Part shown: positions 1 through 27,525 of the stretch, in pieces
Numbering within the stretch: position 1 is the stretch's first letter
Layout: each line of letters starts with the position of its first letter
IMG/VR virus record: IMGVR_UViG_2897352509_000012
DNA: 35,274 nt
From: a virus
Lineage: Duplodnaviria > Heunggongvirae > Uroviricota > Caudoviricetes
Strand: one strand, 5' to 3'
The notes under the pieces: model-generated
What the model was told of the DNA's origin: nothing
The model's input: only the letters and a program-made list of their open reading frames with translations
Databases searched by the model: none
Program-made: the position numbers and the translations under genes

Positions 1-1362
1 ATGTTTAAACCGGAACTCCTTTCCCCGGCGGGAACGCTGAAAAATATGCGTTACGCTTTCGCTTATGGCGCAGATGCTGTTTATGCGGGCCAGCCGCGTT
101 ACTCCCTGCGTGTGCGCAACAACGAATTCAACCACGAAAATCTTCAGCTCGGCATCAATGAAGCCCACGCGCTGGGGAAAAAGTTTTATGTCGTGGTCAA
201 CATTGCCCCGCACAACGCCAAGCTGAAAACCTTTATCCGTGACCTGAAACCGGTGGTGGAAATGGGGCCGGATGCGCTGATTATGTCCGATCCGGGGCTG
301 ATTATGCTGGTGCGCGAGCACTTCCCTAAAATGCCGATCCACCTCTCGGTGCAGGCTAACGCCGTAAACTGGGCGACGGTGAAATTCTGGCAGCAAATGG
401 GCCTGACCCGCGTGATCCTCTCTCGCGAGCTGTCGCTGGAAGAGATTGAAGAGATCCGCCATCAGGTGCCGGATATGGAGATCGAGATCTTCGTTCACGG
501 CGCACTGTGCATGGCCTACTCCGGTCGCTGCCTGCTCTCTGGCTATATCAACAAGCGCGATCCGAACCAGGGTACCTGCACCAACGCCTGCCGCTGGGAG
601 TACAACGTCCAGGAAGGGAAAGAAGATGACGTTGGCAACATCGTACACAAGTACGAGCCGATTCCGGTGCAAAATGTTGAGCCGACGCTAGGTATCGGCG
701 CGCCAACCGACAAAGTGTTTATGATCGAAGAAGCCCAGCGTCCGGGCGAGTATATGACCGCGTTTGAAGATGAGCACGGCACTTACATCATGAACTCGAA
801 AGATCTGCGCGCCATCGCCCATGTAGAACGCCTGACCAAAATGGGCGTGCATTCGCTGAAAATCGAAGGCCGTACTAAATCTTTCTACTATTGCGCACGC
901 ACCGCACAGGTTTATCGTAAAGCTATCGATGATGCCGCTGCGGGCAAACCGTTCGATACCAGCCTGCTGGAAACTCTGGAAGGTCTGGCGCATCGTGGCT
1001 ATACCGAAGGTTTCCTGCGTCGTCATACTCACGACGATTATCAGAACTACGAATACGGTTATTCGGTTTCTGACCGCCAGCAGTTTGTTGGTGAGTTTAC
1101 CGGTGAGCGCAAGGGGGACCTCGCGGCGGTAGCGGTGAAAAATAAATTCTCCGTTGGCGACAGCCTTGAGCTGATGACGCCGCAAGGCAACATTAACTTT
1201 ACCCTTGAGCAGATGGAAAACGCCAAAGGCGAAGCTATGCCGGTAGCACCAGGCGATGGTTATACTGTGTGGCTCCCGGTGCCGCAGGATCTTGAGCTAA
1301 ATTACGCTCTGCTGATGCGTAATTTCTCCGGGGAAACCACGCGTAACCCCCACGGTAAGTGA
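1..1362 (+). CDS. yegQ: U32-family peptidase YegQ (TrhP), full length 453 aa
   Basis: Uninterrupted 453-aa ORF starting MFKPELLSPAGTLKNMRYAF, recognised as E. coli YegQ; host gene at left edge of window. Confidence 0.9.
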   Translation: MFKPELLSPAGTLKNMRYAFAYGADAVYAGQPRYSLRVRNNEFNHENLQLGINEAHALGKKFYVVVNIAPHNAKLKTFIRDLKPVVEMGPDALIMSDPGLIMLVREHFPKMPIHLSVQANAVNWATVKFWQQMGLTRVILSRELSLEEIEEIRHQVPDMEIEIFVHGALCMAYSGRCLLSGYINKRDPNQGTCTNACRWEYNVQEGKEDDVGNIVHKYEPIPVQNVEPTLGIGAPTDKVFMIEEAQRPGEYMTAFEDEHGTYIMNSKDLRAIAHVERLTKMGVHSLKIEGRTKSFYYCARTAQVYRKAIDDAAAGKPFDTSLLETLEGLAHRGYTEGFLRRHTHDDYQNYEYGYSVSDRQQFVGEFTGERKGDLAAVAVKNKFSVGDSLELMTPQGNINFTLEQMENAKGEAMPVAPGDGYTVWLPVPQDLELNYALLMRNFSGETTRNPHGK

Positions 1363-8297: not shown

Positions 8298-8891
8298 CTA
8301 TTTGTCCCGGTTGGCTAAGGGCTGACACAATTTATTTTTTGTCACTGAGGCGGGGAATTTTTTATAGAGCGTGGACAGGCCAATATCAAAAATCAGTGCC
8401 ACGCGTTGACGTGATTCCCCTGCAGCCAGCAACCGCCCGGCCTGCTCCCACTCACTCGCGGTGAGTTTCGGACGTCTGCCACCAATACGACCTTTGGCTC
8501 TGGCCGCCTCCAGTCCGGCGCGTGTCCGCTCGACAATGAGTTCTCGTTCCATTTCAGCCAGGGCACCCATCACATGAAAGAAAAAACGCCCCATCGGCGT
8601 GCTGGTATCAATAGCATCCGTCAGGCTGCGAAAATTAATGCCGCGTTCGCGCAGTTCCTCAACCAGAATGACCAGATGCCGCATACTACGCCCCAGCCTG
8701 TCCAGCTTCCAGACTACCAGAGTGTCACCTGCTGATAATGTTCTGAGCAGTTTTTTTAGTCCCGGTCGGTCGGACTTCGTGCCGCTGATTTTATCCTCAA
8801 AAATCAGCTCACATCCTGCGCACTCCAGCGCGTTACGCTGCAATTCCGTGTTCTGGTCATTTGTTGATACACGAACATAACCTATACGCAT
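8298..8891 (-). CDS. Serine recombinase, Hin/Gin/Pin/Cin-family DNA invertase
   Basis: MRIGYVRVSTNDQNTELQ with catalytic Ser in YVRVSTxxQ, resolvase fold and C-terminal HTH; start taken at MRIGY. Confidence 0.85.
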   Translation of the reverse strand: MRIGYVRVSTNDQNTELQRNALECAGCELIFEDKISGTKSDRPGLKKLLRTLSAGDTLVVWKLDRLGRSMRHLVILVEELRERGINFRSLTDAIDTSTPMGRFFFHVMGALAEMERELIVERTRAGLEAARAKGRIGGRRPKLTASEWEQAGRLLAAGESRQRVALIFDIGLSTLYKKFPASVTKNKLCQPLANRDK

Positions 8892-8915
8892 AAAAATCCC
8901 TATAAAAACAGAATA

Positions 8916-9452
8916 ATGACACATCTTTCAACATCATATTTAACCGATTTCATAAACGTTGGTTTGGGAGAAGGCTCTGCATTACCTGTTGGTGTGCCTG
9001 TTCCATGGCCTTCAGCCACACCGCCAACAGGCTGGCTGAAATGCAACGGTGCGGCATTTTCTGCTGAAGAATACCCGGAACTGGCAAAGGCTTATCCAAC
9101 AAATAAATTACCTGATTTACGCGGTGAGTTTATTCGTGGCTGGGATGACGGGCGCGGTATTGATGCAGGACGTGTTTTATTGAGTATTCAGGCCGGAATG
9201 CTGGAAAAGCATAACCACTATTGGGGAATCTGGACTTCACGAACTAACGACCAGACTCTGGAAAGTTTTACAGGCACCACGATTTTAAAACAAATCACGC
9301 CCCTGTCTCCGGCCATTAACTTCGATAATTACCCAATTCCCAACCCGGCTATTACAGAGGGTGGTGTTGTTGCGGCAACGACTAAACCTGCAGGTGCGAA
9401 TGAAACACGCCCACGAAATGTCGCTTTTAACTATATTGTGAGGGCTGCATAA
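8916..9452 (+). CDS. Alternative tail-fibre C-terminal variable segment, silent in this orientation
   Basis: ORF crosses the crossover site at ...NVGLGEG...; sequence after the site is the alternative C-terminus; the ATG at 8916 is probably not a real start. Confidence 0.55.
   Translation: MTHLSTSYLTDFINVGLGEGSALPVGVPVPWPSATPPTGWLKCNGAAFSAEEYPELAKAYPTNKLPDLRGEFIRGWDDGRGIDAGRVLLSIQAGMLEKHNHYWGIWTSRTNDQTLESFTGTTILKQITPLSPAINFDNYPIPNPAITEGGVVAATTKPAGANETRPRNVAFNYIVRAA
8948..8973. repeat. Inversion crossover site (left), hix/gix-like
   Basis: TTCATAAACGTT-GGTTTGGGAGAAGG; inverted partner at 10849..10876; shared TGGTTTGGGAGAAG half-site with AA/TT centre. Confidence 0.6.
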
Positions 9453-10054
9453 TGAATAACGCAGAATTAAACAGTGAATTAATTGCCACTATGGCAGGAG
9501 AAATTACTGTTTATAACTTTGATGTTGAAACACTGGAATATATTTCCACGTCAACTGAATATCTTGCAGTGGGTGTCGGTATTCCAGCATATTCCTGTTT
9601 AGACGCTCCTGGTACATCTAAGGCTGGTTATACAATTTGCCGTTCTGTGGATTTAAAATCATGGGAATATGTGTCAGACCATCGCGGTGAAATCGTCTAT
9701 AACACCGAAACGGGAGATGCCAAAGAAATCACAGCACTAGGCGACTATCCCGAAAATACAACCACTATCGCCCCTTTATCTCCATACGATAAATGGGATG
9801 GTGAGAAATGGGTGACCGATACTGAGGCACAGCATAGCGCCGCAGTCGAAGCGGCAGAAGCACAACGCCAGTCACTGATTGATGCTGCAATGGCTTCCAT
9901 TAGTCTGATTCAGCTGAAATTACAAGCCGGACGGAAACTGACGCAGGCAGAAACAACCCGACTTAACGCTGTGCTGGATTACATTGACGCGGTGACGGCA
10001 ACAGATACCAGCACCGCGCCGGATGTCATCTGGCCTGAACTGCCGGAGGCGTAG
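9452..10054 (+). CDS. Tail fibre assembly chaperone (alternative set)
   Basis: 200-aa ORF directly after the alternative fibre segment; C-terminus (...LDYIDAVTATDTSTAPDVIWPELP) resembles that of the adjacent assembly protein (...LDYLDALELVDTSSAPDIEWPTPP). Confidence 0.7.
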   Translation: MNNAELNSELIATMAGEITVYNFDVETLEYISTSTEYLAVGVGIPAYSCLDAPGTSKAGYTICRSVDLKSWEYVSDHRGEIVYNTETGDAKEITALGDYPENTTTIAPLSPYDKWDGEKWVTDTEAQHSAAVEAAEAQRQSLIDAAMASISLIQLKLQAGRKLTQAETTRLNAVLDYIDAVTATDTSTAPDVIWPELPEA

Positions 10055-10478
10055 GCCATTCAATATCTGGCGCACTGGAGGTATCAACCAGTTCCAGTGC
10101 GTCCAGATAATCCAGCCACAAATTATATTGCGCCAGTTCCTCACCTTTCAGACGACCAATAGCGGCTTTACCGGGCCATTGCTTACTGTTCATGTATTCG
10201 TTGGCCTGGTTAATTAGTAGCTGTCTTTCTGATTCAGTAATTTCAATAAGTTCTTCATGCGTGGGTGGAGGAATCTCTGCCCACGCAGGCAGCCCATCAT
10301 CTCCGGCAATACGGATTTTTCCTTGTGGCGGTTCAGCCATAAACTCACTGATAATATTTTGATTTACTTCCTTAGCGTCTGATAAATCCCATCCCTCTGA
10401 TTTATATTTATCAATCATATCCACAGGGAAAAAAGCATTATGCCTTGCGCTATAAACATATTCGTTCATATAAATCAC
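10026..10478 (-). CDS. G: Tail fibre assembly chaperone (G-like, active set)
   Basis: 150-aa ORF directly downstream of H on the same strand; 3' end overlaps convergent assembly gene. Confidence 0.75.
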   Translation of the reverse strand: MIYMNEYVYSARHNAFFPVDMIDKYKSEGWDLSDAKEVNQNIISEFMAEPPQGKIRIAGDDGLPAWAEIPPPTHEELIEITESERQLLINQANEYMNSKQWPGKAAIGRLKGEELAQYNLWLDYLDALELVDTSSAPDIEWPTPPAVQAR

Positions 10479-10489
10479 CCTGAATAAAA

Positions 10490-11689
10490 TTACTCACCAA
10501 CAGCCCACCAACTGTAATTCATCGATACCGTGTCGCTGGTTGATGACGTTCTGTAAGCAGAATTAAAGCCGGTTAACGTTGGGCCTTCTGCAGTCATCAC
10601 GAACCCTCGCCCAGCGCCTAAAGGCGCACCGCCATCACCAGAATGAGTAAGCATGGCGCAGTCCGCTTTTTTGGGGAAAGGGATGCTGAATGTAATTCTC
10701 ATTGTTTGCGTCGATAATGTCGGCGTAACCGCACCACGACCATATTGCAGGATTTTCCCGTTGGGTAATTTCATCCATCCATCACCACTGGCAAAAGAGG
10801 CCATGTCCGGTATCTGATTTTCCCCTGTCCCCACATCCCGTTTTGCCGCTTCTCCCAAACCAAGGTATGCGAGAAGACCAGCAACATCCTTTCCACTCAA
10901 ATTAGTAAGCGTATTGTCCAGCGGTTGTTTGCCTGCCAGCGCATTGTTAATGGTGGTGCTGAATTTCGGGTCATTGTTAATGGCTGCGGCAATTTCTTTC
11001 AGTGTGTCCAGCGTGGCTGGCGCACCGTTAATCAGAGCGGTAATAGCGGCCTGAACAAACTCAGTGGTCGCAATCCGCGAGGTGTTATTTCCTGCGGCAG
11101 GCGTCGGCGCTTTTGGTTCTCCGGTAAATGTCGGATTATGTTTCTGCGCATACTGGGTATGAGGATCCTGTGCGGCAATGTGGTTTCTCATCTGGTCATC
11201 CACATACAGCCTTAATTCCAGGACTTCATCATCCACGTATTTACGGGTCGCCAGTACCACCGACGGGTCGATTTTCAGCGTGATGGCTTCGGTATTCGTG
11301 ACAACCAGAATCATGCGGATAGTCTGGGTGCGTCCGCTGCCTTCCTGCAACTGCGGTTTGTACGTTTCCGGGCAGTTTGCCACCGCAATGAGTACACCTT
11401 CATCATCATAAAGACCAATCTCACGGATCCAGAACCCTCCCTCGTTTTCAGGGATGATTTGCTCCGCAATAATCTGGCTCTGATTGTTCGGGTCAACACT
11501 CAGAAGATTCAGCGGTGCAATGCGTTTCTGGTTAATCAGTATTGTCTGTGCCGGGTCTGGTGTCGGCAAGACACCATTCGCATCACCAACGGCCATTTGC
11601 GTCAGATTCAGCTTACTGCCGAGCATCGTCGCGTTAGCCAGCCGTGCTGCGCCCTGATTAGTCAGAATGGCGTAGTATTTCACTGTCAT
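10490..11689 (-). CDS. H: Tail fibre protein H; constant N-terminus (about 10863..11689) fused to variable C-terminus (10490..10862)
   Basis: N-terminus MTVKYYAILTNQGAARLANA recognised as P2 gpH-like; crossover site inside ORF at ...AYLGLGEAA... Confidence 0.85.
   Translation of the reverse strand: MTVKYYAILTNQGAARLANATMLGSKLNLTQMAVGDANGVLPTPDPAQTILINQKRIAPLNLLSVDPNNQSQIIAEQIIPENEGGFWIREIGLYDDEGVLIAVANCPETYKPQLQEGSGRTQTIRMILVVTNTEAITLKIDPSVVLATRKYVDDEVLELRLYVDDQMRNHIAAQDPHTQYAQKHNPTFTGEPKAPTPAAGNNTSRIATTEFVQAAITALINGAPATLDTLKEIAAAINNDPKFSTTINNALAGKQPLDNTLTNLSGKDVAGLLAYLGLGEAAKRDVGTGENQIPDMASFASGDGWMKLPNGKILQYGRGAVTPTLSTQTMRITFSIPFPKKADCAMLTHSGDGGAPLGAGRGFVMTAEGPTLTGFNSAYRTSSTSDTVSMNYSWWAVGE
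10849..10876. repeat. Inversion crossover site (right), hix/gix-like, inside H
   Basis: CTTCTCCCAAACC-AA-GGTATGCGAGAAG, inverted relative to 8948..8973. Confidence 0.6.
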
Positions 11690-20622: not shown

Positions 20623-22395
20623 ATGACCATCACCACAGACACCACTCTTTTACACGACCCGCGTCGTCAGGCGGCGCTGCTGTACTGGCAGGGGTTTTCC
20701 GTGCCGCAGATTGCCTCCATGTTGCAGATGAAACGCCCGACGGTGCAGAGCTGGAAACAGCGCGACGCCTGGGACAGCGTTGCCCCCATCAGCCGTGTCG
20801 AAATGAGTCTGGAAGCGCGGCTGACCCAGCTCATCATCAAACCGCAGAAAACCGGCGGGGACTTCAAGGAAATTGACCTGCTGGGACGCCAGATTGAACG
20901 ACTGGCACGGGTCAACCGTTACAGCCAGACCGGCAACGAGGCAGACCTTAATCCGAACATCGCTAACCGCAACAAAGGCGGGCGTCGCAAACCGAAAAAG
21001 AATTTTTTCAGTGACGAGGCCATCGAAAAGCTGGAGCAGATTTTCTTTGAGCAGTCTTTCGAATATCAGTTGCACTGGTATCGCGCCGGGCTTGAGCACC
21101 GCATCCGCGATATCCTGAAATCCCGCCAGATTGGCGCGACGTTTTATTTTTCCCGCGAGGCGCTGCTGCGCGCCCTGAAAACCGGTCATAACCAGATTTT
21201 TCTGTCGGCCAGTAAAACGCAGGCGTATGTGTTCCGCGAATACATCATCGCCTTTGCCCGGCTGGTTGACGTTGACCTGACCGGTGACCCGATTGTCCTG
21301 GGCAATAACGGCGCAAAACTGATTTTTCTCGGCACCAACTCCAACACCGCACAGAGCCATAACGGCGACCTGTACGTCGACGAGATTTTCTGGATCCCGA
21401 ATTTTCAGGTACTGCGTAAGGTGGCATCAGGTATGGCCTCACAGAGTCACCTGCGCTCGACCTATTTCTCCACCCCGTCCACGCTGGCGCACGACGCCTA
21501 CCCGTTCTGGTCGGGTGAACTGTTTAACCGGGGACGCGCCAGCGCCGCTGAACGCGTGGAAATCGACGTCAGTCATAACGCCCTTGCCGGTGGGCTTCTC
21601 TGTGCGGACGGCCAGTGGCGGCAGATTGTCACCATTGAGGACGCCCTGAAAGGCGGCTGCACGCTGTTCGACATTGAGCAGCTCAAACGCGAAAACAGCG
21701 CCGACGATTTTAAAAACCTGTTCATGTGTGAATTTGTTGACGACAAGGCGTCGGTGTTCCCGTTCGAGGAGCTGCAACGCTGCATGGTCGACACGCTGGA
21801 AGAATGGGAAGACTATGCGCCGTTTGCCGCCAATCCGTTCGGCTCACGTCCGGTATGGATTGGTTACGACCCGTCACACCGTGGCGACAGCGCCGGATGC
21901 GTGGTGCTGGCACCGCCGGTGGTGGCCGGTGGCAAATTCAGGATCCTTGAGCGTCACCAGTGGAAAGGCATGGACTTTGCCACCCAGGCAGAATCCATCC
22001 GCAAACTCACCGAAAAATACAACGTCGAATACATCGGTATTGATGCCACCGGCCTCGGTGTCGGCGTGTTCCAGCTCGTGCGCTCGTTCTATCCCGCCGC
22101 GCGCGATATCCGCTACACACCGGAAATGAAAACCGCAATGGTGCTCAAGGCAAAAGACGTTATCCGCCGTGGCTGTCTGGAATACGACGTCAGCGCCACC
22201 GACATCACCAGCTCGTTTATGGCTATCCGCAAGACCATGACCAGCAGCGGGCGCAGCGCCACCTATGAGGCCAGCCGCAGCGAGGAAGCCAGCCACGCCG
22301 ACCTCGCCTGGGCGACCATGCACGCCCTGTTAAATGAGCCACTCACCGCCGGTATCAGCACCCCGCTGACATCCACCATTCTGGAGTTTTACTGA
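20623..22395 (+). CDS. P: Terminase ATPase (large) subunit P, 590 aa
   Basis: MTITTDTTLLHDPRRQAALLYWQGFSVPQIA...; start at internal Met gives P2 gpP length. Confidence 0.9.
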   Translation: MTITTDTTLLHDPRRQAALLYWQGFSVPQIASMLQMKRPTVQSWKQRDAWDSVAPISRVEMSLEARLTQLIIKPQKTGGDFKEIDLLGRQIERLARVNRYSQTGNEADLNPNIANRNKGGRRKPKKNFFSDEAIEKLEQIFFEQSFEYQLHWYRAGLEHRIRDILKSRQIGATFYFSREALLRALKTGHNQIFLSASKTQAYVFREYIIAFARLVDVDLTGDPIVLGNNGAKLIFLGTNSNTAQSHNGDLYVDEIFWIPNFQVLRKVASGMASQSHLRSTYFSTPSTLAHDAYPFWSGELFNRGRASAAERVEIDVSHNALAGGLLCADGQWRQIVTIEDALKGGCTLFDIEQLKRENSADDFKNLFMCEFVDDKASVFPFEELQRCMVDTLEEWEDYAPFAANPFGSRPVWIGYDPSHRGDSAGCVVLAPPVVAGGKFRILERHQWKGMDFATQAESIRKLTEKYNVEYIGIDATGLGVGVFQLVRSFYPAARDIRYTPEMKTAMVLKAKDVIRRGCLEYDVSATDITSSFMAIRKTMTSSGRSATYEASRSEEASHADLAWATMHALLNEPLTAGISTPLTSTILEFY

Positions 22396-23429
22396 TGAGC
22401 AAGAAAAAAGGGAAAACACCGCAACCTGCGGCAAAAAAAATGACCGCCAGCGCCCCGAAAATGGAGGCATTCACCTTTGGTGAGCCGGTGCCGGTACTCG
22501 ACCGCCGTGACATTCTGGATTACGTCGAATGCATCAGTAACGGCAGATGGTATGAGCCACCAATCAGCTTTACCGGTCTGGCAAAAAGCCTGCGTGCTGC
22601 CGTGCATCACAGCTCACCGATTTACGTTAAACGCAATATTCTGGCCTCGACATTTATCCCGCATCCGTGGCTTTCCCAGCAGGATTTCAGCCGCTTTGTG
22701 CTGGATTTTCTGGTGTTCGGTAATGCGTTTCTGGAAAAGCGCTACAGCACCACCGGTAAGGTCATCAGACTGGAAACCTCACCGGCAAAATATACCCGCC
22801 GTGGTGTTGAGGAGGATGTTTACTGGTGGGTGCCGTCCTTCAACGAGCCGACACCTTTCGCGCCCGGCTCCGTGTTTCACCTGCTGGAGCCGGATATTAA
22901 TCAGGAGCTGTACGGCCTGCCGGAATATCTCAGCGCCCTTAACTCTGCCTGGCTGAATGAATCGGCCACGCTGTTCCGCCGCAAGTATTACGAAAACGGC
23001 GCTCATGCCGGATATATCATGTACGTCACTGATGCCGTGCAGGATCGCAACGATATCGAAATGCTCCGCGAAAACATGGTGAAGTCGAAAGGCCGCAACA
23101 ACTTTAAAAACCTGTTTCTCTACGCCCCACAGGGAAAAGCCGACGGTATTAAAATTATCCCGCTCAGTGAAGTGGCAACGAAGGACGATTTTTTTAATAT
23201 CAAAAAAGCCAGCGCCGCAGACCTGCTGGACGCGCACCGCATCCCCTTTCAGTTGATGGGCGGCAAGCCGGAGAACGTCGGGTCGCTGGGTGATATTGAG
23301 AAAGTGGCAAAGGTCTTTGTCCGCAATGAGCTTATCCCGTTACAGGACAGGATCCGCGAGATAAACGGCTGGCTCGGTCAGGAGGTCATCCGCTTTAAAA
23401 ACTACTCACTGGACACTGACAACGGCTGA
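22395..23429 (+). CDS. Q: Portal protein Q, 344 aa
   Basis: Length/synteny match to P2 gpQ; ATGA overlap with P stop. Confidence 0.9.
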   Translation: MSKKKGKTPQPAAKKMTASAPKMEAFTFGEPVPVLDRRDILDYVECISNGRWYEPPISFTGLAKSLRAAVHHSSPIYVKRNILASTFIPHPWLSQQDFSRFVLDFLVFGNAFLEKRYSTTGKVIRLETSPAKYTRRGVEEDVYWWVPSFNEPTPFAPGSVFHLLEPDINQELYGLPEYLSALNSAWLNESATLFRRKYYENGAHAGYIMYVTDAVQDRNDIEMLRENMVKSKGRNNFKNLFLYAPQGKADGIKIIPLSEVATKDDFFNIKKASAADLLDAHRIPFQLMGGKPENVGSLGDIEKVAKVFVRNELIPLQDRIREINGWLGQEVIRFKNYSLDTDNG

Positions 23430-23434
23430 ACATC

Positions 23435-23456
23435 GCCGCCTGCGGGCGGCTTTTTT
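23435..23456 (+). terminator. Rho-independent terminator after Q
   Basis: GCCGCC-TGCG-GGCGGC hairpin followed by TTTTTT, 6 nt after Q stop. Confidence 0.6.
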
Positions 23457-23598
23457 ACACCCCGTCATCACGCCCTCACACGCTCACCACCGCGCAAAAC
23501 AGCCCGCAGACAAACCAACGCCCCGGCGCACAATCTAAACGCCATCACGACGCGCTCAGACGCTGAAAAAATAAAATCAGCACCACCGCCAGCGCGCA

Positions 23599-23617
23599 GT
23601 GCTTTCCCCGCCTCGCC
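23599..23617. other. cos cohesive-end site
   Basis: GTGCTTTCCCCGCCTCGCC is the reverse complement of the P2 19-nt cohesive end GGCGAGGCGGGGAAAGCAC as I remember it; lies beside Q as in P2. Confidence 0.7.
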
Positions 23618-23746
23618 CGCCCGCTTCGTGGGGCGGTTTTAATGCAGATGCATTATGAGCCCTGAGCTGCGCCTAACGTGACACAGCTTCACTAAATAGA
23701 CTCATTATCCACATGCAATCTAATTCAAAAAAATGCATGTATAGTA

Positions 23747-25717
23747 TTAAAGGTCATCAATTAAACCTAAAGGCAAACCGTCCTCACCAACCGAGCTATA
23801 ATGAGCGATAATATTCGAAAGTTCACCAGTAGAAAACGAATTAGGCAAATCATTATCAACTAATATAATCTGGCACGGAACATTTTTTCTTTCTGCTTTT
23901 TGAACTGTATTCAATAGTTGTTCATAAATATTTTGATACTTCATCGGATCTGACATTCCCTCAAGGTCATCCTCGAATGCAAGAGTTTCTTTTGAATATT
24001 TTTCCTTGGTCTGTTTCCCTAAATATTTGCCAACCGTATCAAATATCAAAAGTAAAGGATGGTTAACATTATGATCTATTGCATAATCAAGAATAGACAA
24101 AAGATACCCAATAGAAGAAATAGTTCTCAAACCTCCGGATGTTATTTTAAAATATTCTTTTTCTCTTATAACAGGAATGTAATAGCTTTCAGAGATTTTT
24201 ATCCCCGTTCTGTTTTTGATATTAATACTCTTCAAATACTGACTAAATCTATCACCCAAACCTTGTAAAATGCCCTCCATGCTAGGTGCGTTTTTCTTTA
24301 ACGCCTCCAAGCGTTCAGTTAATGCTTCAATATCTTTTCTCAGTACCTGATACTTTTCAAGCAGTTCCTCTTGCTGGTTTCTAACCTTCAAATCTTTTAC
24401 TAACTGCTCCCTAACCTTCTCATTTTTTGAGATCTCTTTAATATAAAAATCTCTCTGAGTCAAGAATGGTGTAATCATTGACTGGCTTTCTTCGTCAATC
24501 AATTCTCTCAACTCGTCAAGTCGTTCATCTAATTCCTTTTTATAACCTGATTCTTTTTTTAATTTAAATGACATTTCTGAGATCATGTCATTAATATTTC
24601 GTCTACGTCGACTAAGTGAATTCAACTCTTCATTAAGATCTTTTTCTGATGAAATTTCAAATGGAAAATCAGAATCATCTATTTTAATGTGGCTATCACA
24701 GACTGGACAGGAAAATACTTCCTTATCCAATACACCAATGCGAGAATTTGCTGTTTTAATCGCTTTGAGTTTTTCAATATCATTATCATAGTCATTTTTT
24801 AACCGCGAATATTTATCAATCTTATCCTCAAGCGCAGTAATATTTAATATGCACTCTTTGTATTTAAGCGAAATAAAATTGTGAGCATCTTTCAATTCTG
24901 TATACTGTATGGAATCCGCTTTCATATTTTTATCGAGAGCAGACAAACCTGCAACAAGTTCTTCTAAAACAAGATCTATCCTATTAATCTCATCATCAAT
25001 TGATTCAATCGTTTCATAGTCTGTATCGCGAAGAAATTCAGATATTATCTGATACTTCCTATTTAATTCCGTTACTAAACTACTTTTTGCAGATATTTCA
25101 CCTTGGAGTCTGGCGATGCTTTCATCCAACACATTGAACATGTATTTAAAAACTTCTTTCGTAAATGCGTAGCGGGACCAATCACCCAATCGCAAGAAAG
25201 ATTTACTACCAATATCATCCTGACTTACATAAACAAATTTATATATATTTCTAAAACTTAACCTGCGCATCTGTGAATGAGCTTTAGAAGGAGACACCTT
25301 AATTTCAATCTTTGGAAAATTAAGACTATCAAGTAAAAACTCCGAAAAAACACCATCAACATTTGATAATGGGCTATAATTAGGAGCGTATTTTTTCGGA
25401 AAATGTTTATGTAAATCATCAAACTTACAACGATAAACTTCTATTGCTTTTTTATGATCATAGATATCTCTTACGATTGTGAATACAGTATCATTGATCA
25501 CTACTTCAAGAGCAGCATAGTTTACTGATGTTTTTATTTCATCTGCTAAATCTATAGAGCTAGCACCTAAAAGATAATTAATAAACTCCAGAATGCTTGA
25601 CTTACCTGTGTCAGAGTCTCCGTAGATAACATTGAGACCTTTATAAAAAGTAGTGACGTAGTTTTTACGAACGCCAACAAGAATCAAACTATTGATATTG
25701 AGATATGATTTCATCAT
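23747..25717 (-). CDS. SMC/Rad50-like ABC ATPase with coiled coil and CxxC zinc hook (cargo gene 3)
   Basis: Walker A GDSDTGKS (res 33-40), heptad-rich middle with CPVC (res 337-340), signature TSGGL (526-530), Walker B LLLIFD (555-560). Confidence 0.75.
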   Translation of the reverse strand: MMKSYLNINSLILVGVRKNYVTTFYKGLNVIYGDSDTGKSSILEFINYLLGASSIDLADEIKTSVNYAALEVVINDTVFTIVRDIYDHKKAIEVYRCKFDDLHKHFPKKYAPNYSPLSNVDGVFSEFLLDSLNFPKIEIKVSPSKAHSQMRRLSFRNIYKFVYVSQDDIGSKSFLRLGDWSRYAFTKEVFKYMFNVLDESIARLQGEISAKSSLVTELNRKYQIISEFLRDTDYETIESIDDEINRIDLVLEELVAGLSALDKNMKADSIQYTELKDAHNFISLKYKECILNITALEDKIDKYSRLKNDYDNDIEKLKAIKTANSRIGVLDKEVFSCPVCDSHIKIDDSDFPFEISSEKDLNEELNSLSRRRRNINDMISEMSFKLKKESGYKKELDERLDELRELIDEESQSMITPFLTQRDFYIKEISKNEKVREQLVKDLKVRNQQEELLEKYQVLRKDIEALTERLEALKKNAPSMEGILQGLGDRFSQYLKSINIKNRTGIKISESYYIPVIREKEYFKITSGGLRTISSIGYLLSILDYAIDHNVNHPLLLIFDTVGKYLGKQTKEKYSKETLAFEDDLEGMSDPMKYQNIYEQLLNTVQKAERKNVPCQIILVDNDLPNSFSTGELSNIIAHYSSVGEDGLPLGLIDDL

Positions 25718-26226
25718 TTCTCCTTGAAGACTTGATTTATAACAGAGTTTAACTTAGAGGTAGGCAATGCTTGTAGCGGTAACAATGCTTCGGATAGTCG
25801 TTTTATTTCTTTAAAATATCCATCAGTCAATGAGCTAGCAAATTCCTTACCTTTTTCAGATAAAAATAATTTAACACTCTCATTATTTTTTTTCTCAGCT
25901 GAGAGCAATCCCCGCAATGACATAATTTTTATAAGATATTTCACTTTGGAATTGTCGAATAAGATATCTACATTTGTTGAAAAACTCTTTATTGTATAAG
26001 TTAACTGGGACTCGACACAAGCAGGCTTTTTCCCCGAAACTGTAAGAGCATAATCAATTTTTGATGGGTTTTTTATCAGATACATAAAAATTTGTATTTT
26101 ATTAATATCTAATGATAACACTCCTTTTTTGCTATGAGATAATATAGATATAGCAATGGCAAGCATAGCAAAATTCAAGCTATACTCTTCATCAAGAGGA
26201 ATATACGGCAAGTTATTTTTCTTCAT
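25714..26226 (-). CDS. Small protein of unknown function, 170 aa (cargo gene 2)
   Basis: ORF overlaps both neighbours (14 nt and ATGA overlap), same AT-rich composition; no recognisable motifs. Confidence 0.6.
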   Translation of the reverse strand: MKKNNLPYIPLDEEYSLNFAMLAIAISILSHSKKGVLSLDINKIQIFMYLIKNPSKIDYALTVSGKKPACVESQLTYTIKSFSTNVDILFDNSKVKYLIKIMSLRGLLSAEKKNNESVKLFLSEKGKEFASSLTDGYFKEIKRLSEALLPLQALPTSKLNSVINQVFKEK

Positions 26227-27436
26227 GATTACCTCGCCGTAATTGCTCCAAAGTTTCTACGCTGGTTTCAGATGACCAGACAATATCCCTGTCATTTTTG
26301 TTAGCCAGTTGATGCAACATTCCTTTCTTATGTATCGTTTCTAAACTTTTTATAAGAGAATCTAACGACGACTTATCCTCTTGGGCTATTCGTCTATGAA
26401 CAGCAGCAATAAATTTATCTGGGGAAATTGAATTCGCGATATATTGCTCATACTCTTCCTGGTAAATCTCCCTTATTTTAGAATACAAATGACCAAGTAG
26501 TTTCCTATCGTAATCACTCGTAAAAATATTTCTCGCAAGCTCAGCATTATAATAATATTCCTTTGCATGCATAGCGATATCCTGATGTATATCTGCGACA
26601 ATCATTTTTAAGACGAAATACTCATTATCATATTGTTTCTCATCAGAAAAACGCTCAACACATATCTTCTTGGGTGCTTCTAAATTTATCTGCTGAATAA
26701 ATTGCTTTACCGCAACAAACACTGTAGACGAGCTGTTTTCGGGCTTGCAAATTGAGCTATGCCCTTCATTAACTGCAATTGAGTTATTTCGTTCACTATC
26801 CATCGGTAATGCGCTTTTTTTATCAACTATAGTGTCATGAGAACCATAAACATATCTAGTGATAGGAAGTTTTTTGCTACAATTTATCCAGCGCCTATTC
26901 AACGTATCGGTCGCTTCACTTAACAATCCAAGATCTACTAACTGAGCATTTGAAGATACCATTGAAGTTATATTCGCCAATTTAGCACCAAAGTGAGGGA
27001 CTGCTAACGAAATGAATCCAATTATATTAGATTGTTCCTCATGCTCAACTTTTTTTAGAATTAGATTTTTTGATATTACCCCCCCCATACTATGGGCGAT
27101 TATTATAATTCGAGAGTAATCACTTAGCGTTACCCTAATCTCAGTATACAATAACTCAGCTATTTCATCAGTTGGTAAATTTCTCTCTAACTTATTTTTC
27201 TTAGAGAAAATACGAGCCCATAATCCTGACGTTTTAGCATACGTTTGTGTAAATTTGGTGAAATAATTGAAACATGCAATATCAAATACATTGCCAATGT
27301 CTTCATCTTCTGCTAATAGTTTTGGAAATGAAGTTTCTTTATTAAAGTTCCATGTTTCCAAACCACCATTTAATCCATGTACAAATAGTATCAGGCTATC
27401 TTTTTTCTCGTGGCTTATCCATTCAACCATGCTCAT
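26213..27436 (-). CDS. Lipase-like alpha/beta hydrolase fused to C-terminal helical domain, 407 aa (cargo gene 1)
   Basis: HG oxyanion motif (LILFVHGLNGG), AHSMG nucleophile pentapeptide (Ser116), downstream GSHDT (Asp201) and EGHSS (His226); C-terminal about 160 aa helical, Tyr/Glu-rich. Confidence 0.75.
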   Translation of the reverse strand: MSMVEWISHEKKDSLILFVHGLNGGLETWNFNKETSFPKLLAEDEDIGNVFDIACFNYFTKFTQTYAKTSGLWARIFSKKNKLERNLPTDEIAELLYTEIRVTLSDYSRIIIIAHSMGGVISKNLILKKVEHEEQSNIIGFISLAVPHFGAKLANITSMVSSNAQLVDLGLLSEATDTLNRRWINCSKKLPITRYVYGSHDTIVDKKSALPMDSERNNSIAVNEGHSSICKPENSSSTVFVAVKQFIQQINLEAPKKICVERFSDEKQYDNEYFVLKMIVADIHQDIAMHAKEYYYNAELARNIFTSDYDRKLLGHLYSKIREIYQEEYEQYIANSISPDKFIAAVHRRIAQEDKSSLDSLIKSLETIHKKGMLHQLANKNDRDIVWSSETSVETLEQLRRGNHEEK

Positions 27437-27525
27437 ATGCTTTTCTGCCGTGTATAAAAATTAAACTATAACAAACAATTCCTCAACAATAACATATTGT
27501 TACCCCGTTTGACCGTTTTTTTCAA
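27437..27525 (-). promoter_or_regulatory. AT-rich putative promoter region upstream of the cargo cassette
   Basis: Minus strand shows TTGTTG ... TTTAAT-like hexamers; assignment by eye only. Confidence 0.3.

Follow-up and report, generated by a model that had tools for sequence, protein, structure and literature searches.

What does a low-GC operon of three overlapping genes, the first of which encodes a putative serine hydrolase, do between the replication and portal genes of a P2-like prophage, and what would its hydrolase attack? Within the window analysed here (the whole stretch of viral DNA, 35,274 nucleotides), the operon stands out as cargo by its GC content, which is 33% compared to 53% in the rest of the window. 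Our answer to the first part of the question is that the hydrolase gene very probably represents lmuA, the effector gene of a short, zinc-hook-bearing Lamassu (ABC-3C) system of the 'Lipase' kind, encoded in an overlapping lmuA-lmuC-lmuB operon (Table 1).

The identification is carried by all three genes. The LmuA profile of PADLOC (PDLC03851) matches the predicted LmuA almost from end to end (E = 3.5e-108; residues 3-406 on profile positions 2-342 of 343), LmuB is matched over its full length by PDLC03862 (1.5e-235), and LmuC is recognised both by PDLC03869 (1.5e-52) and by the Pfam family MC4 (PF20290; 5e-27, 95.3 bits against a cut-off of 28.1). In NCBIfam, all three proteins remained below every curated cut-off, the matches of LmuB to SMC/Rad50 coiled-coil families being likewise sub-threshold. 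RefSeq holds LmuA as WP_000063136.1, an 'ABC-three component system protein'; we follow its numbering of 407 residues, while some gene callers start the protein at Met3 and thus arrive at 405 residues (P0001).

The preliminary description of this DNA had proposed an abortive-infection-type effector that works with two further components. Since the adjoining genes are LmuC and LmuB according to PADLOC, LmuA can indeed be addressed as the effector of a three-component system. The name of the system, Lamassu or ABC-3C, does not occur in that description. Four features by which Lamassu membership is judged are present, namely the LmuB ATPase, the MC4-type LmuC, an LmuA that joins an effector domain to a CTD8 domain, and an operon conserved in unrelated hosts: Methylomonas and Pseudomonas aeruginosa likewise have overlapping genes for a DUF676+CTD8 protein, an MC4 protein and an ATPase of about 660-670 residues, and in the latter a gene for an OLD-family ATPase is situated two genes from the copy. 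As to the motifs of LmuB, short Lamassu of the lipase clade are reported to have a CxxC hook (PMC12663957), and Li et al. have pointed out that the Walker B of LmuB is deviant (10.1101/2025.03.14.643221).

Table 1. Features of the lmuA-lmuC-lmuB locus and its boundaries (positions in the window; strand in brackets)
Feature	Position	Size or residues	Remarks
gpQ, P2 portal protein	22395..23429 (+)		hotspot boundary; RefSeq 'phage portal protein'
Terminator-like hairpin	23580..23595 (-)		3' of lmuB; consensus match only
lmuB	23747..25717 (-)	656 aa	short SMC/Rad50-like ABC ATPase; overlaps lmuC by 4 nt
Walker-B-like LLLIFD, LmuB	24038..24055 (-)	residue 555	next residue Thr, not Glu
Signature-like SGG, LmuB	24131..24139 (-)	residue 527	
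Zinc-hook motif CPVC, LmuB	24698..24709 (-)	residues 337-340	mid coiled coil
Walker A GDSDTGKS, LmuB	25598..25621 (-)		Lys39 = 25601..25603
lmuC	25714..26226 (-)	170 aa	middle component (MC4), intact; overlaps lmuA by 14 nt
lmuA	26213..27436 (-)	407 aa	probable Lamassu effector; N-terminal alpha/beta-hydrolase 'lipase' domain (predicted) and C-terminal CTD8
CTD8 domain of ABC-3C systems, LmuA	26270..26644 (-)	residues 265-389	putative helical docking and oligomerisation module
Alpha/beta-hydrolase domain (DUF676/PGAP1-like), LmuA	26672..27436 (-)	residues ~1-255	predicted effector domain
Predicted catalytic His226, LmuA	26759..26761 (-)	in EGHSS	after strand 219-222; invariant 55/55
Predicted catalytic acid Asp201, LmuA	26834..26836 (-)	in GSHDT	after strand 192-198; invariant 55/55
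Predicted nucleophile elbow AHSMG, LmuA	27083..27097 (-)	residues 114-118	Ser116 codon 27089..27091; strand 109-115 / helix 117-131
Predicted oxyanion-hole motif HG, LmuA	27374..27379 (-)	His20-Gly21	right behind strand 14-19; invariant 55/55
Sigma-70-like promoter candidate, weak	27496..27525 (-)		TTGAAA-18-AACAAT, 9/12; in the 89-nt gpA/lmuA gap; consensus match only
gpA, P2 replication endonuclease	27526..29850 (-)		hotspot boundary; Pfam Phage_GPA 5.5e-124; RefSeq 'replication endonuclease'

The position of the operon is equally informative, as the P2-like prophage belongs to E. coli O157:H7 and the operon lies in its defence hotspot between gpA and gpQ. Its sequence matches that of O157:H7 strain EC4115 at 100% identity. 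Of 5,426 complete E. coli genomes, 96 carry the operon, and its products are annotated there as ABC-three-component proteins. A tblastn search of LmuA against 50,697 deposited phage genomes returned no match. The hotspot is defined as the interval between gpA and gpQ, and WP_000063136 is listed there (Rousset 2022, PMC9122126). A Lamassu variant from the P4 hotspot, described in a 2026 NAR paper, was considered as the same system and rejected, its LmuBC being of the SMEK type and unrelated. As to expression signals, promoter-like matches are no commoner in the region than in its shuffled versions.

The find itself is already known and ordinary, because this kind of system has been catalogued, PADLOC and Pfam models for it exist, RefSeq names the genes, and WP_000063136 forms part of a published catalogue of P2 hotspots. 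Its remaining value is practical, in that a naturally intact lipase Lamassu, native to E. coli, is carried on a P2-like prophage of O157:H7, a major pathogen lineage.

The second part of the question concerns the hydrolase. Pfam places four families above their gathering cut-offs in LmuA: DUF676 (36.7 against 20.3), PGAP1 (30.6 against 24.3), Abhydrolase_1 (26.7 against 25.8) and LCAT (22.2 against 21). The structure prediction, with a pLDDT of 85-96 in the core, likewise gives the N-terminal domain an alpha/beta-hydrolase fold; two insertions, at residues 61-85 and 151-170, are modelled with low confidence. This fold had been proposed in the preliminary description from four motifs, and translation and coordinates return each of them at the residues given there (HG at 20-21, AHSMG with Ser116, GSHDT with Asp201, EGHSS with His226), including the codon assigned to Ser116. 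In the model, the putative triad Ser116-Asp201-His226 and the HG oxyanion motif follow the canonical order and occupy canonical loop positions, the adjacency of the triad residues being read only from this topology. Foldseek matches of the model include NDRG proteins, which share the alpha/beta-hydrolase fold.

The motifs are conserved far beyond chance, as is evident from the 194 LmuA homologues detected at E<=1e-3 (E = 1e-90 to 4e-266 among the matches listed) and from the alignment of 55 sequences with 39-92% identity. H20, G21, H115, S116, M117, G118, D201 and H226 are invariant throughout this alignment (55/55), and position 114 of the elbow is Ala in 52 of the 55 sequences. A profile alignment to the PDB leads to the same residues, since Ser, Asp and His of LmuA fall on AHSRGG, D and H of a putative lipase of Legionella (7x2p; 6.2e-07). 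Weaker matches of this kind were obtained to LPLA2 (4x90), whose AHSMG aligns with the elbow of LmuA, and to GPI inositol-deacylase.

An elbow of the type AxSxG is characteristic of small Bacillus lipases. The hint that had been drawn from the Ala-for-Gly replacement in AHSMG is correct in so far as this replacement is typical of such enzymes, but it does not classify LmuA: Pfam Lipase_2 is absent among the LmuA matches at E<=0.1, and we therefore reject the assignment to the small Bacillus-type lipases (family I.4). The enzymes that do resemble LmuA are BlEst2 of Bacillus licheniformis (6wpx), RavL of Legionella (7x2p), LPLA2 (4x90) and GPI inositol-deacylase (8k9r), all at an identity of 15-18%. 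These are free-standing, membrane or secreted proteins, whereas in LmuA the hydrolase domain is joined to a docking domain of the ABC-3C kind, and LmuA has neither a signal peptide nor a transmembrane segment (maximum Kyte-Doolittle value of 1.42 in a 19-residue window).

From these nearest enzyme families we infer that ester bonds of membrane lipids may be the substrate of LmuA. Our literature search found no report of esterase or lipase activity for any Lamassu lipase. Alternatively, LmuA might be an active serine hydrolase effector whose lethal substrate is something other than a membrane lipid, such as an acyl-thioester (acyl-ACP/acyl-CoA), a lipoprotein or other acylated protein, a peptide bond or a small-molecule ester. 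We consider this rather unlikely, as the sequence similarity points only to families that act on lipids, namely DUF676 (putative serine esterase), PGAP1, LCAT/LPLA2, BlEst2 and RavL, and similarity at the sequence level is more specific than a shared fold. In particular, a post-strand motif 'PHxG' is common to LmuA and these lipid-acting families and is invariant in the LmuA homologues.

The remainder of LmuA is of a different nature. Beyond residue ~255 the protein is predicted to be all-helical, and residues 265-389 match the Pfam family CTD8 (PF20284; 1.7e-35, 122.5 bits against a cut-off of 27.6, profile positions 1-126 of 127) as well as two further LmuA models (PDLC03856, 5.3e-11; PDLC03852, 4.7e-07). 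The reading of this helical C-terminus as a partner-docking domain, already put forward in the preliminary description, is supported by the match to CTD8. Of 158 residues counted in this part, E accounts for 17, K and I for 14 each, L for 13 and Y for 10, these being the commonest. The model of this part has a low pLDDT, amounting to 51 when residues 256-407 are modelled alone from an alignment of 26 sequences and to 50-70 in the model of full-length LmuA. Searching the PDB by sequence and by profile with the C-terminal domain, LmuB and LmuC yielded no meaningful match, the solved LmuA chains included; matches to uL18 and Smaug (E >= 0.03) were set aside as probable coiled-coil or helical noise.

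Taken together with published work on other Lamassu systems, from which the first four steps are adopted, this architecture suggests the following mode of action. In the uninfected cell, a single LmuA would be held inactive by its C-terminal domain on a complex of two LmuB and one LmuC. LmuB may sense replication intermediates or DNA ends of an infecting phage, upon which LmuA would be released and self-associate through the C-terminal domain, turning the effector active. Active LmuA would then kill or arrest the cell, so that the infection is aborted. The final step, proposed from the similarity to DUF676, PGAP1, LCAT/LPLA2 and bacterial lipases and phospholipases, is that the activated serine hydrolase would attack membrane-lipid ester bonds from the cytoplasmic side. 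The lipase may instead kill by way of a specific acylated target (acyl-ACP, a lipoprotein or a lipid-linked cell-wall precursor), or its activation by a DNA-sensing SMC-like complex may follow another rule than the release and tetramerisation of the nuclease systems; that either of these departures applies seems improbable to us. If one of them did, the intact operon of O157:H7 would provide a tractable model, native to E. coli, in which a signal from DNA structure gives rise to a lethal activity that is not directed at nucleic acids.

We also have to consider that the three genes might be prophage cargo unrelated to defence, either with the lipase contributing to the virulence or fitness of O157:H7 or as a module for prophage maintenance or addiction. 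Such cargo is not foreign to P2 hotspots, from which partitioning systems and a cytolethal distending toxin are known (PMC9122126), and a near-identical operon from E. coli B REL606 stands outside the validated defence systems. This clone, pFR106 'Hydrolase + SMC' (Rousset et al. 2022, Table S2B), derives from the same gpA-gpQ locus and is of the same allele family: its LmuA is identical to the O157:H7-type protein at 388, and its LmuB at 390, of the 399 residues compared. It is listed among the 'additional tested systems' only (PMC9122126). However, a 2-nt TG insertion in lmuC of REL606 leads to a stop after 50 residues, and RefSeq splits the gene into two, whereas lmuC in the window is intact. 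The REL606 result is consequently uninformative, and absence from the validated list provides no evidence of an inactive system. REL606 is the only tested clone of this allele family that we found in the literature.

Several further observations speak against a role outside defence. The lack of a signal peptide or transmembrane segment makes a secreted lipase unlikely; the hydrolase is fused to CTD8, and MC4 and LmuB always accompany it in the distant hosts examined; the OLD-family ATPase gene lies close to the P. aeruginosa copy; and a related lipase Lamassu defends its host (PMC12663957). A secreted or virulence lipase is accordingly rejected, the domain being always fused to CTD8 within the LmuACB operon, and non-defence cargo in general is very improbable. 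Least credible is a degenerate pseudo-enzyme domain serving as a scaffold, a reading already disfavoured, for which nothing specific speaks apart from the NDRG proteins among the Foldseek matches, and which is opposed by the invariance of Ser, Asp, His and HG in all 55 homologues down to ~40% identity as well as by the loss of function in a catalytic His mutant of a relative (PMC12663957).

The Lamassu effector with a predicted lipase domain can be compared with several known systems. The V. cholerae DdmABC / Vc-Cap4 and Salmonella LmuACB systems, whose structures have been solved, follow the same three-component logic with an SMC/Rad50-like LmuB, and the LmuA of nuclease Lamassu likewise carries its effector at the N-terminus and its docking domain at the C-terminus. 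In these nuclease systems monomeric LmuA is sequestered, DNA is sensed, and LmuA is released and then oligomerises; for lipase LmuAs with a CTD of type 8 or 9, dimers as well as cyclic oligomers have been predicted (10.1101/2025.03.14.643221). The zinc hook, lost in the Vc-Cap4 clade (PMC12663957), is kept in LmuB of the window. The main difference lies in the effector, which is a Cap4 nuclease there and, by prediction, a serine alpha/beta hydrolase here, combined with a C-terminal domain of type 8 and an LmuC of type MC4; with a hydrolase of this kind in place of the nuclease, the target cannot be DNA.

With respect to its presumed working, LmuA would resemble an effector of CBASS. CapV is a cytoplasmic lipid hydrolase that stays inactive until the phage is sensed and then destroys the membrane, so that the infection is aborted. 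It was reportedly characterised by Cohen et al. in 2019 as a patatin-like phospholipase with a Ser-Asp dyad that is activated by binding of a cyclic nucleotide. The similarity is one of analogy only, as the folds and the activation differ and LmuA has no match to Pfam patatin.

The nearest functional comparison is offered by the E. coli Lamassu Ec-Lipase. The two are different proteins, as the numbering of their residues indicates (catalytic His at 215 and Walker A Lys at 42 in Ec-Lipase compared to H226 and K39 here; residue numbering compared only), and none of the 55 sampled LmuA homologues of the CTD8 subfamily has a His at position 215. Both are nevertheless short Lamassu systems of E. 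coli, in which a lipase-type LmuA is accompanied by an LmuC and by an LmuB with a CxxC zinc hook. Protection against lambda-vir has been shown for Ec-Lipase, as has toxicity upon over-induction (Haudiquet et al., PNAS 2025, PMC12663957); the H215A substitution in its LmuA abolishes both defence and toxicity, and K42A in its LmuB abolishes defence (PMC12663957).

Judging by its encoded proteins, the lmuACB operon (overlapping genes lmuA, lmuC and lmuB) belongs to the Lipase subtype of Lamassu and is a short system with a zinc hook. LmuA matches the PADLOC model PDLC03851 over residues 3-406 (3.5e-108), and both partner genes follow downstream with overlaps of 14 nt and 4 nt. In LmuB, Walker A reads GDSDTGKS (Lys39) and a CPVC zinc-hook motif lies at residue 337; there is also an SGG signature-like motif, and Thr follows the Walker-B-like LLLIFD. 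The suggestion that LmuA serves a three-component abortive-infection system as its effector is supported by these downstream LmuC and LmuB genes, as recognised by PADLOC and Pfam. The system type is already catalogued, as evident from the Pfam and PADLOC models, the RefSeq names ('ABC-three component system protein', 'ABC-three component system middle component 4' and 'AAA family ATPase'), the entry of this very accession in the P2 hotspot catalogue and an experimentally validated relative.

Features of the prophage and of the REL606 counterpart (window positions unless indicated)
Feature	Position	Strand	Remark
U32 peptidase gene	1..1362		prophage flank
Invertase/tail-fibre region ORF	8298-8924	-	
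Invertase/tail-fibre region ORF	8916-10054	+	
Invertase/tail-fibre region ORF	10026-11689	-	
Inverted repeat ACGTTGGTTTGGGAGAAG	8956-8973 and 10849-10866		18 nt, 94% complementary, brackets tail-fibre region
Portal gene gpQ	22395..23429		lmuACB neighbour, one side
Strong terminator-like hairpins (two)	23435-23450, 23617-23636	+	between portal gene and lmuB
LmuB	23747..25717	-	PADLOC 1.5e-235
LmuC	25714..26226	-	Pfam MC4 5e-27; PADLOC 1.5e-52
lmuA	26213..27436	-	ORF, 407 aa
HG motif	LmuA residues 20-21	-	translation
AHSMG	LmuA residues 114-118; Ser116 codon 27089..27091	-	translation
GSHDT	LmuA, with Asp201	-	translation
EGHSS	LmuA, with His226	-	translation
gpA (replication endonuclease)	27526..29850		lmuACB neighbour, other side
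YegS-like lipid kinase gene	34375..35274		prophage flank
REL606 lmuC	L006 (REL606 locus, NC_012967.1 2112173-2117687) 2501-3015		counterpart window 25714-26226

Translation of lmuA confirmed the motif observation of the preliminary description, with every motif at the residue and codon claimed for it, and the pattern is far above chance. A large protein collection contains 194 relatives at E<=1e-3 (4e-266 to about 1e-90 among the matches listed), nearly all of them 397-432 aa long. Residues H20, G21, H115, S116, M117, G118, H148, D201 and H226 are invariant in all 55 relatives that were aligned (39-92% identity to the query), and position 114 is Ala in 52 of the 55. The start codon (codons 1-2 at window 27431-27436) is ambiguous between Met1, giving the 407 aa of RefSeq, and Met3. 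Met3 is kept in at least 90% of homologues and begins the 405-aa commonest cluster representative (P0001, 374 member sequences); no obvious Shine-Dalgarno sequence precedes either Met.

The N-terminal part of LmuA exceeds the Pfam gathering thresholds of DUF676, PGAP1, Abhydrolase_1 and LCAT, which assigns it to the alpha/beta hydrolases. In the AlphaFold2 model from the 55-sequence alignment the hydrolase core is well determined (10-residue blocks mostly at pLDDT 85-96), whereas the model is poor in insertions 61-85 and 151-170 and in the C-terminal domain. Of the 982 PDB matches that Foldseek gave at E<=1e-3, every listed entry is an alpha/beta hydrolase; monoacylglycerol lipases, carboxylesterases and 6i8w, a membrane phospholipase A of P. 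aeruginosa, are among them. The HG pair immediately follows strand 14-19 of the model, Ser116 sits in the turn joining strand 109-115 to helix 117-131, Asp201 follows strand 192-198 and His226 follows strand 219-222. As modelled, the catalytic residues stand at the sites that are canonical for this fold, and the topology suggests that the triad is adjacent in three dimensions. Structure prediction and fold search, which were among the checks proposed initially, yielded the alpha/beta-hydrolase fold, and together with the Pfam families and the topology of Ser116, Asp201 and His226 they support the serine lipase/esterase domain.

Both insertions, at window positions of about 27182-27256 (61-85) and about 26927-26986 (151-170), interrupt the hydrolase core with pLDDT below 50. 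The second lies at the usual site of a lid or cap in alpha/beta-hydrolase lipases, and may for this reason gate substrate access upon activation.

The family profile of LmuA aligned RavL (chain 7x2p) at 6.2e-07, with AHSRGG opposite AHSMGG and Asp and His opposite their counterparts; lysosomal phospholipase A2 and GPI inositol-deacylase matched more weakly, at the nucleophile elbow and a downstream 'PHxG' motif. Since the nearest sequence families all act on lipids, we infer that the target of LmuA is a membrane lipid. The main alternative, that LmuA acts as a thioesterase or other esterase rather than on membrane lipid, appears unlikely, although the alpha/beta-hydrolase fold by itself would fit such an activity equally. 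None of the papers searched demonstrates a substrate for a Lamassu lipase effector. No signal peptide or transmembrane segment was found in LmuA, so that a lipid-directed enzyme would act from the cytoplasm.

Residues 265-389 of LmuA match CTD8, a C-terminal domain family of ABC-three-component systems, over nearly the complete Pfam profile (1.7e-35), and the domain is predicted to be helical throughout. The same stretch matches C-terminal parts of other LmuA models in PADLOC (5.3e-11 and 4.7e-07), as expected for a docking module common to interchangeable effectors. Sequence searches with this domain found no solved relative, and a model of the domain alone (pLDDT 51) is too poor for comparison with solved LmuA C-terminal domains; the partner-docking role in the preliminary description is backed by CTD8 family membership, not by structural comparison. 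By analogy with other Lamassu systems (10.1101/2025.03.14.643221, PMC12663957), one inactive LmuA monomer would be bound through its C-terminal domain to LmuB2-LmuC in uninfected cells. LmuB would recognise DNA ends or phage replication intermediates, and the freed LmuA would oligomerise via this domain, switching on the effector and aborting the infection. Li et al. predicted dimers and cyclic oligomers for CTD8- and CTD9-type lipase LmuAs, and note that activation of lipase effectors by oligomerisation is not established (10.1101/2025.03.14.643221).

A single P2-like prophage makes up essentially the whole window, with tail, baseplate, capsid, terminase, portal, gpA, cox-like, repressor and integrase genes. 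A 15-nt direct repeat CATTGACCACATCGA near both ends (at 1582 and 33526) could be the attachment-site core. A resolvase/invertase-family gene adjoins oppositely oriented tail-collar, tail-fibre C-terminal and tail-fibre-assembly genes, and the region resembles an invertible host-range segment of the Gin/Cin/Pin type. By analogy with P2, the GC-rich intergenic stretch between portal gene and lmuB (23430-23746, 317 nt) would be expected to contain the cos site, which Rousset et al. place beside the hotspot (PMC9122126).

The GC content of lmuACB is 33%, against 53% for the remainder of the window. The operon occupies the gpA-gpQ interval, which Rousset et al. described as the defence hotspot of P2-like phages, and the accession of its LmuA (WP_000063136) is entered in Table S5A of the same study as 'DUF676/PGAP1 + hypothetical + hypothetical' (PMC9122126). 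The operon is 100% identical to copies in E. coli O157:H7 EC4115 and TR01. Among 5,426 complete E. coli genomes, 96 have it, each as a single chromosomal copy. Despite this prophage-borne presence, tblastn against 50,697 deposited phage genomes gave no LmuA match at E<=1e-5; evidently, isolated and sequenced P2-like phages seldom bear this cargo. Overlapping genes for DUF676+CTD8, MC4 (the LmuC family) and an ATPase of about 660-670 aa also occur in Pseudomonas aeruginosa and Methylomonas, there in non-prophage settings, with an OLD-family ATPase gene two genes away in P. aeruginosa.

Ec-Lipase, a validated Lamassu lipase system of E. coli, guards against lambda-vir and becomes toxic when strongly induced; defence and toxicity are both lost with LmuA H215A, and defence is lost with LmuB K42A (Haudiquet et al., PMC12663957). 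On residue numbering it is another allele, because its catalytic His 215 and Walker Lys 42 differ from His 226 and Lys 39 here, and none of 55 LmuA subfamily members has the His at 215 (222-229, one at 240). A member of the window's own allele family is pFR106 ('Hydrolase + SMC'), cloned from E. coli B REL606 by Rousset et al. (PMC9122126), with 388 (LmuA) and 390 (LmuB) identical residues over the 399 compared. It is placed in Table S2B ('additional tested systems'), is absent from the validated-systems table, and its 'Protein 2' has only 50 aa (PMC9122126). Whereas lmuC is intact in the window, REL606 lmuC has two extra nucleotides, TG, behind nucleotide 148, and these cause an immediate stop and a 50 aa product. 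RefSeq splits this gene into two CDS, and the neighbouring REL606 portal gene is also a fragment. In the alignment the indel is absent from lmuC of O157:H7 copies and other E. coli B-lineage genomes. The frameshift may underlie the inactivity of pFR106, whose omission from the validated list is therefore uninformative on the intact system; it is the intact operon of O157:H7 that merits testing, not the frameshifted one of REL606.
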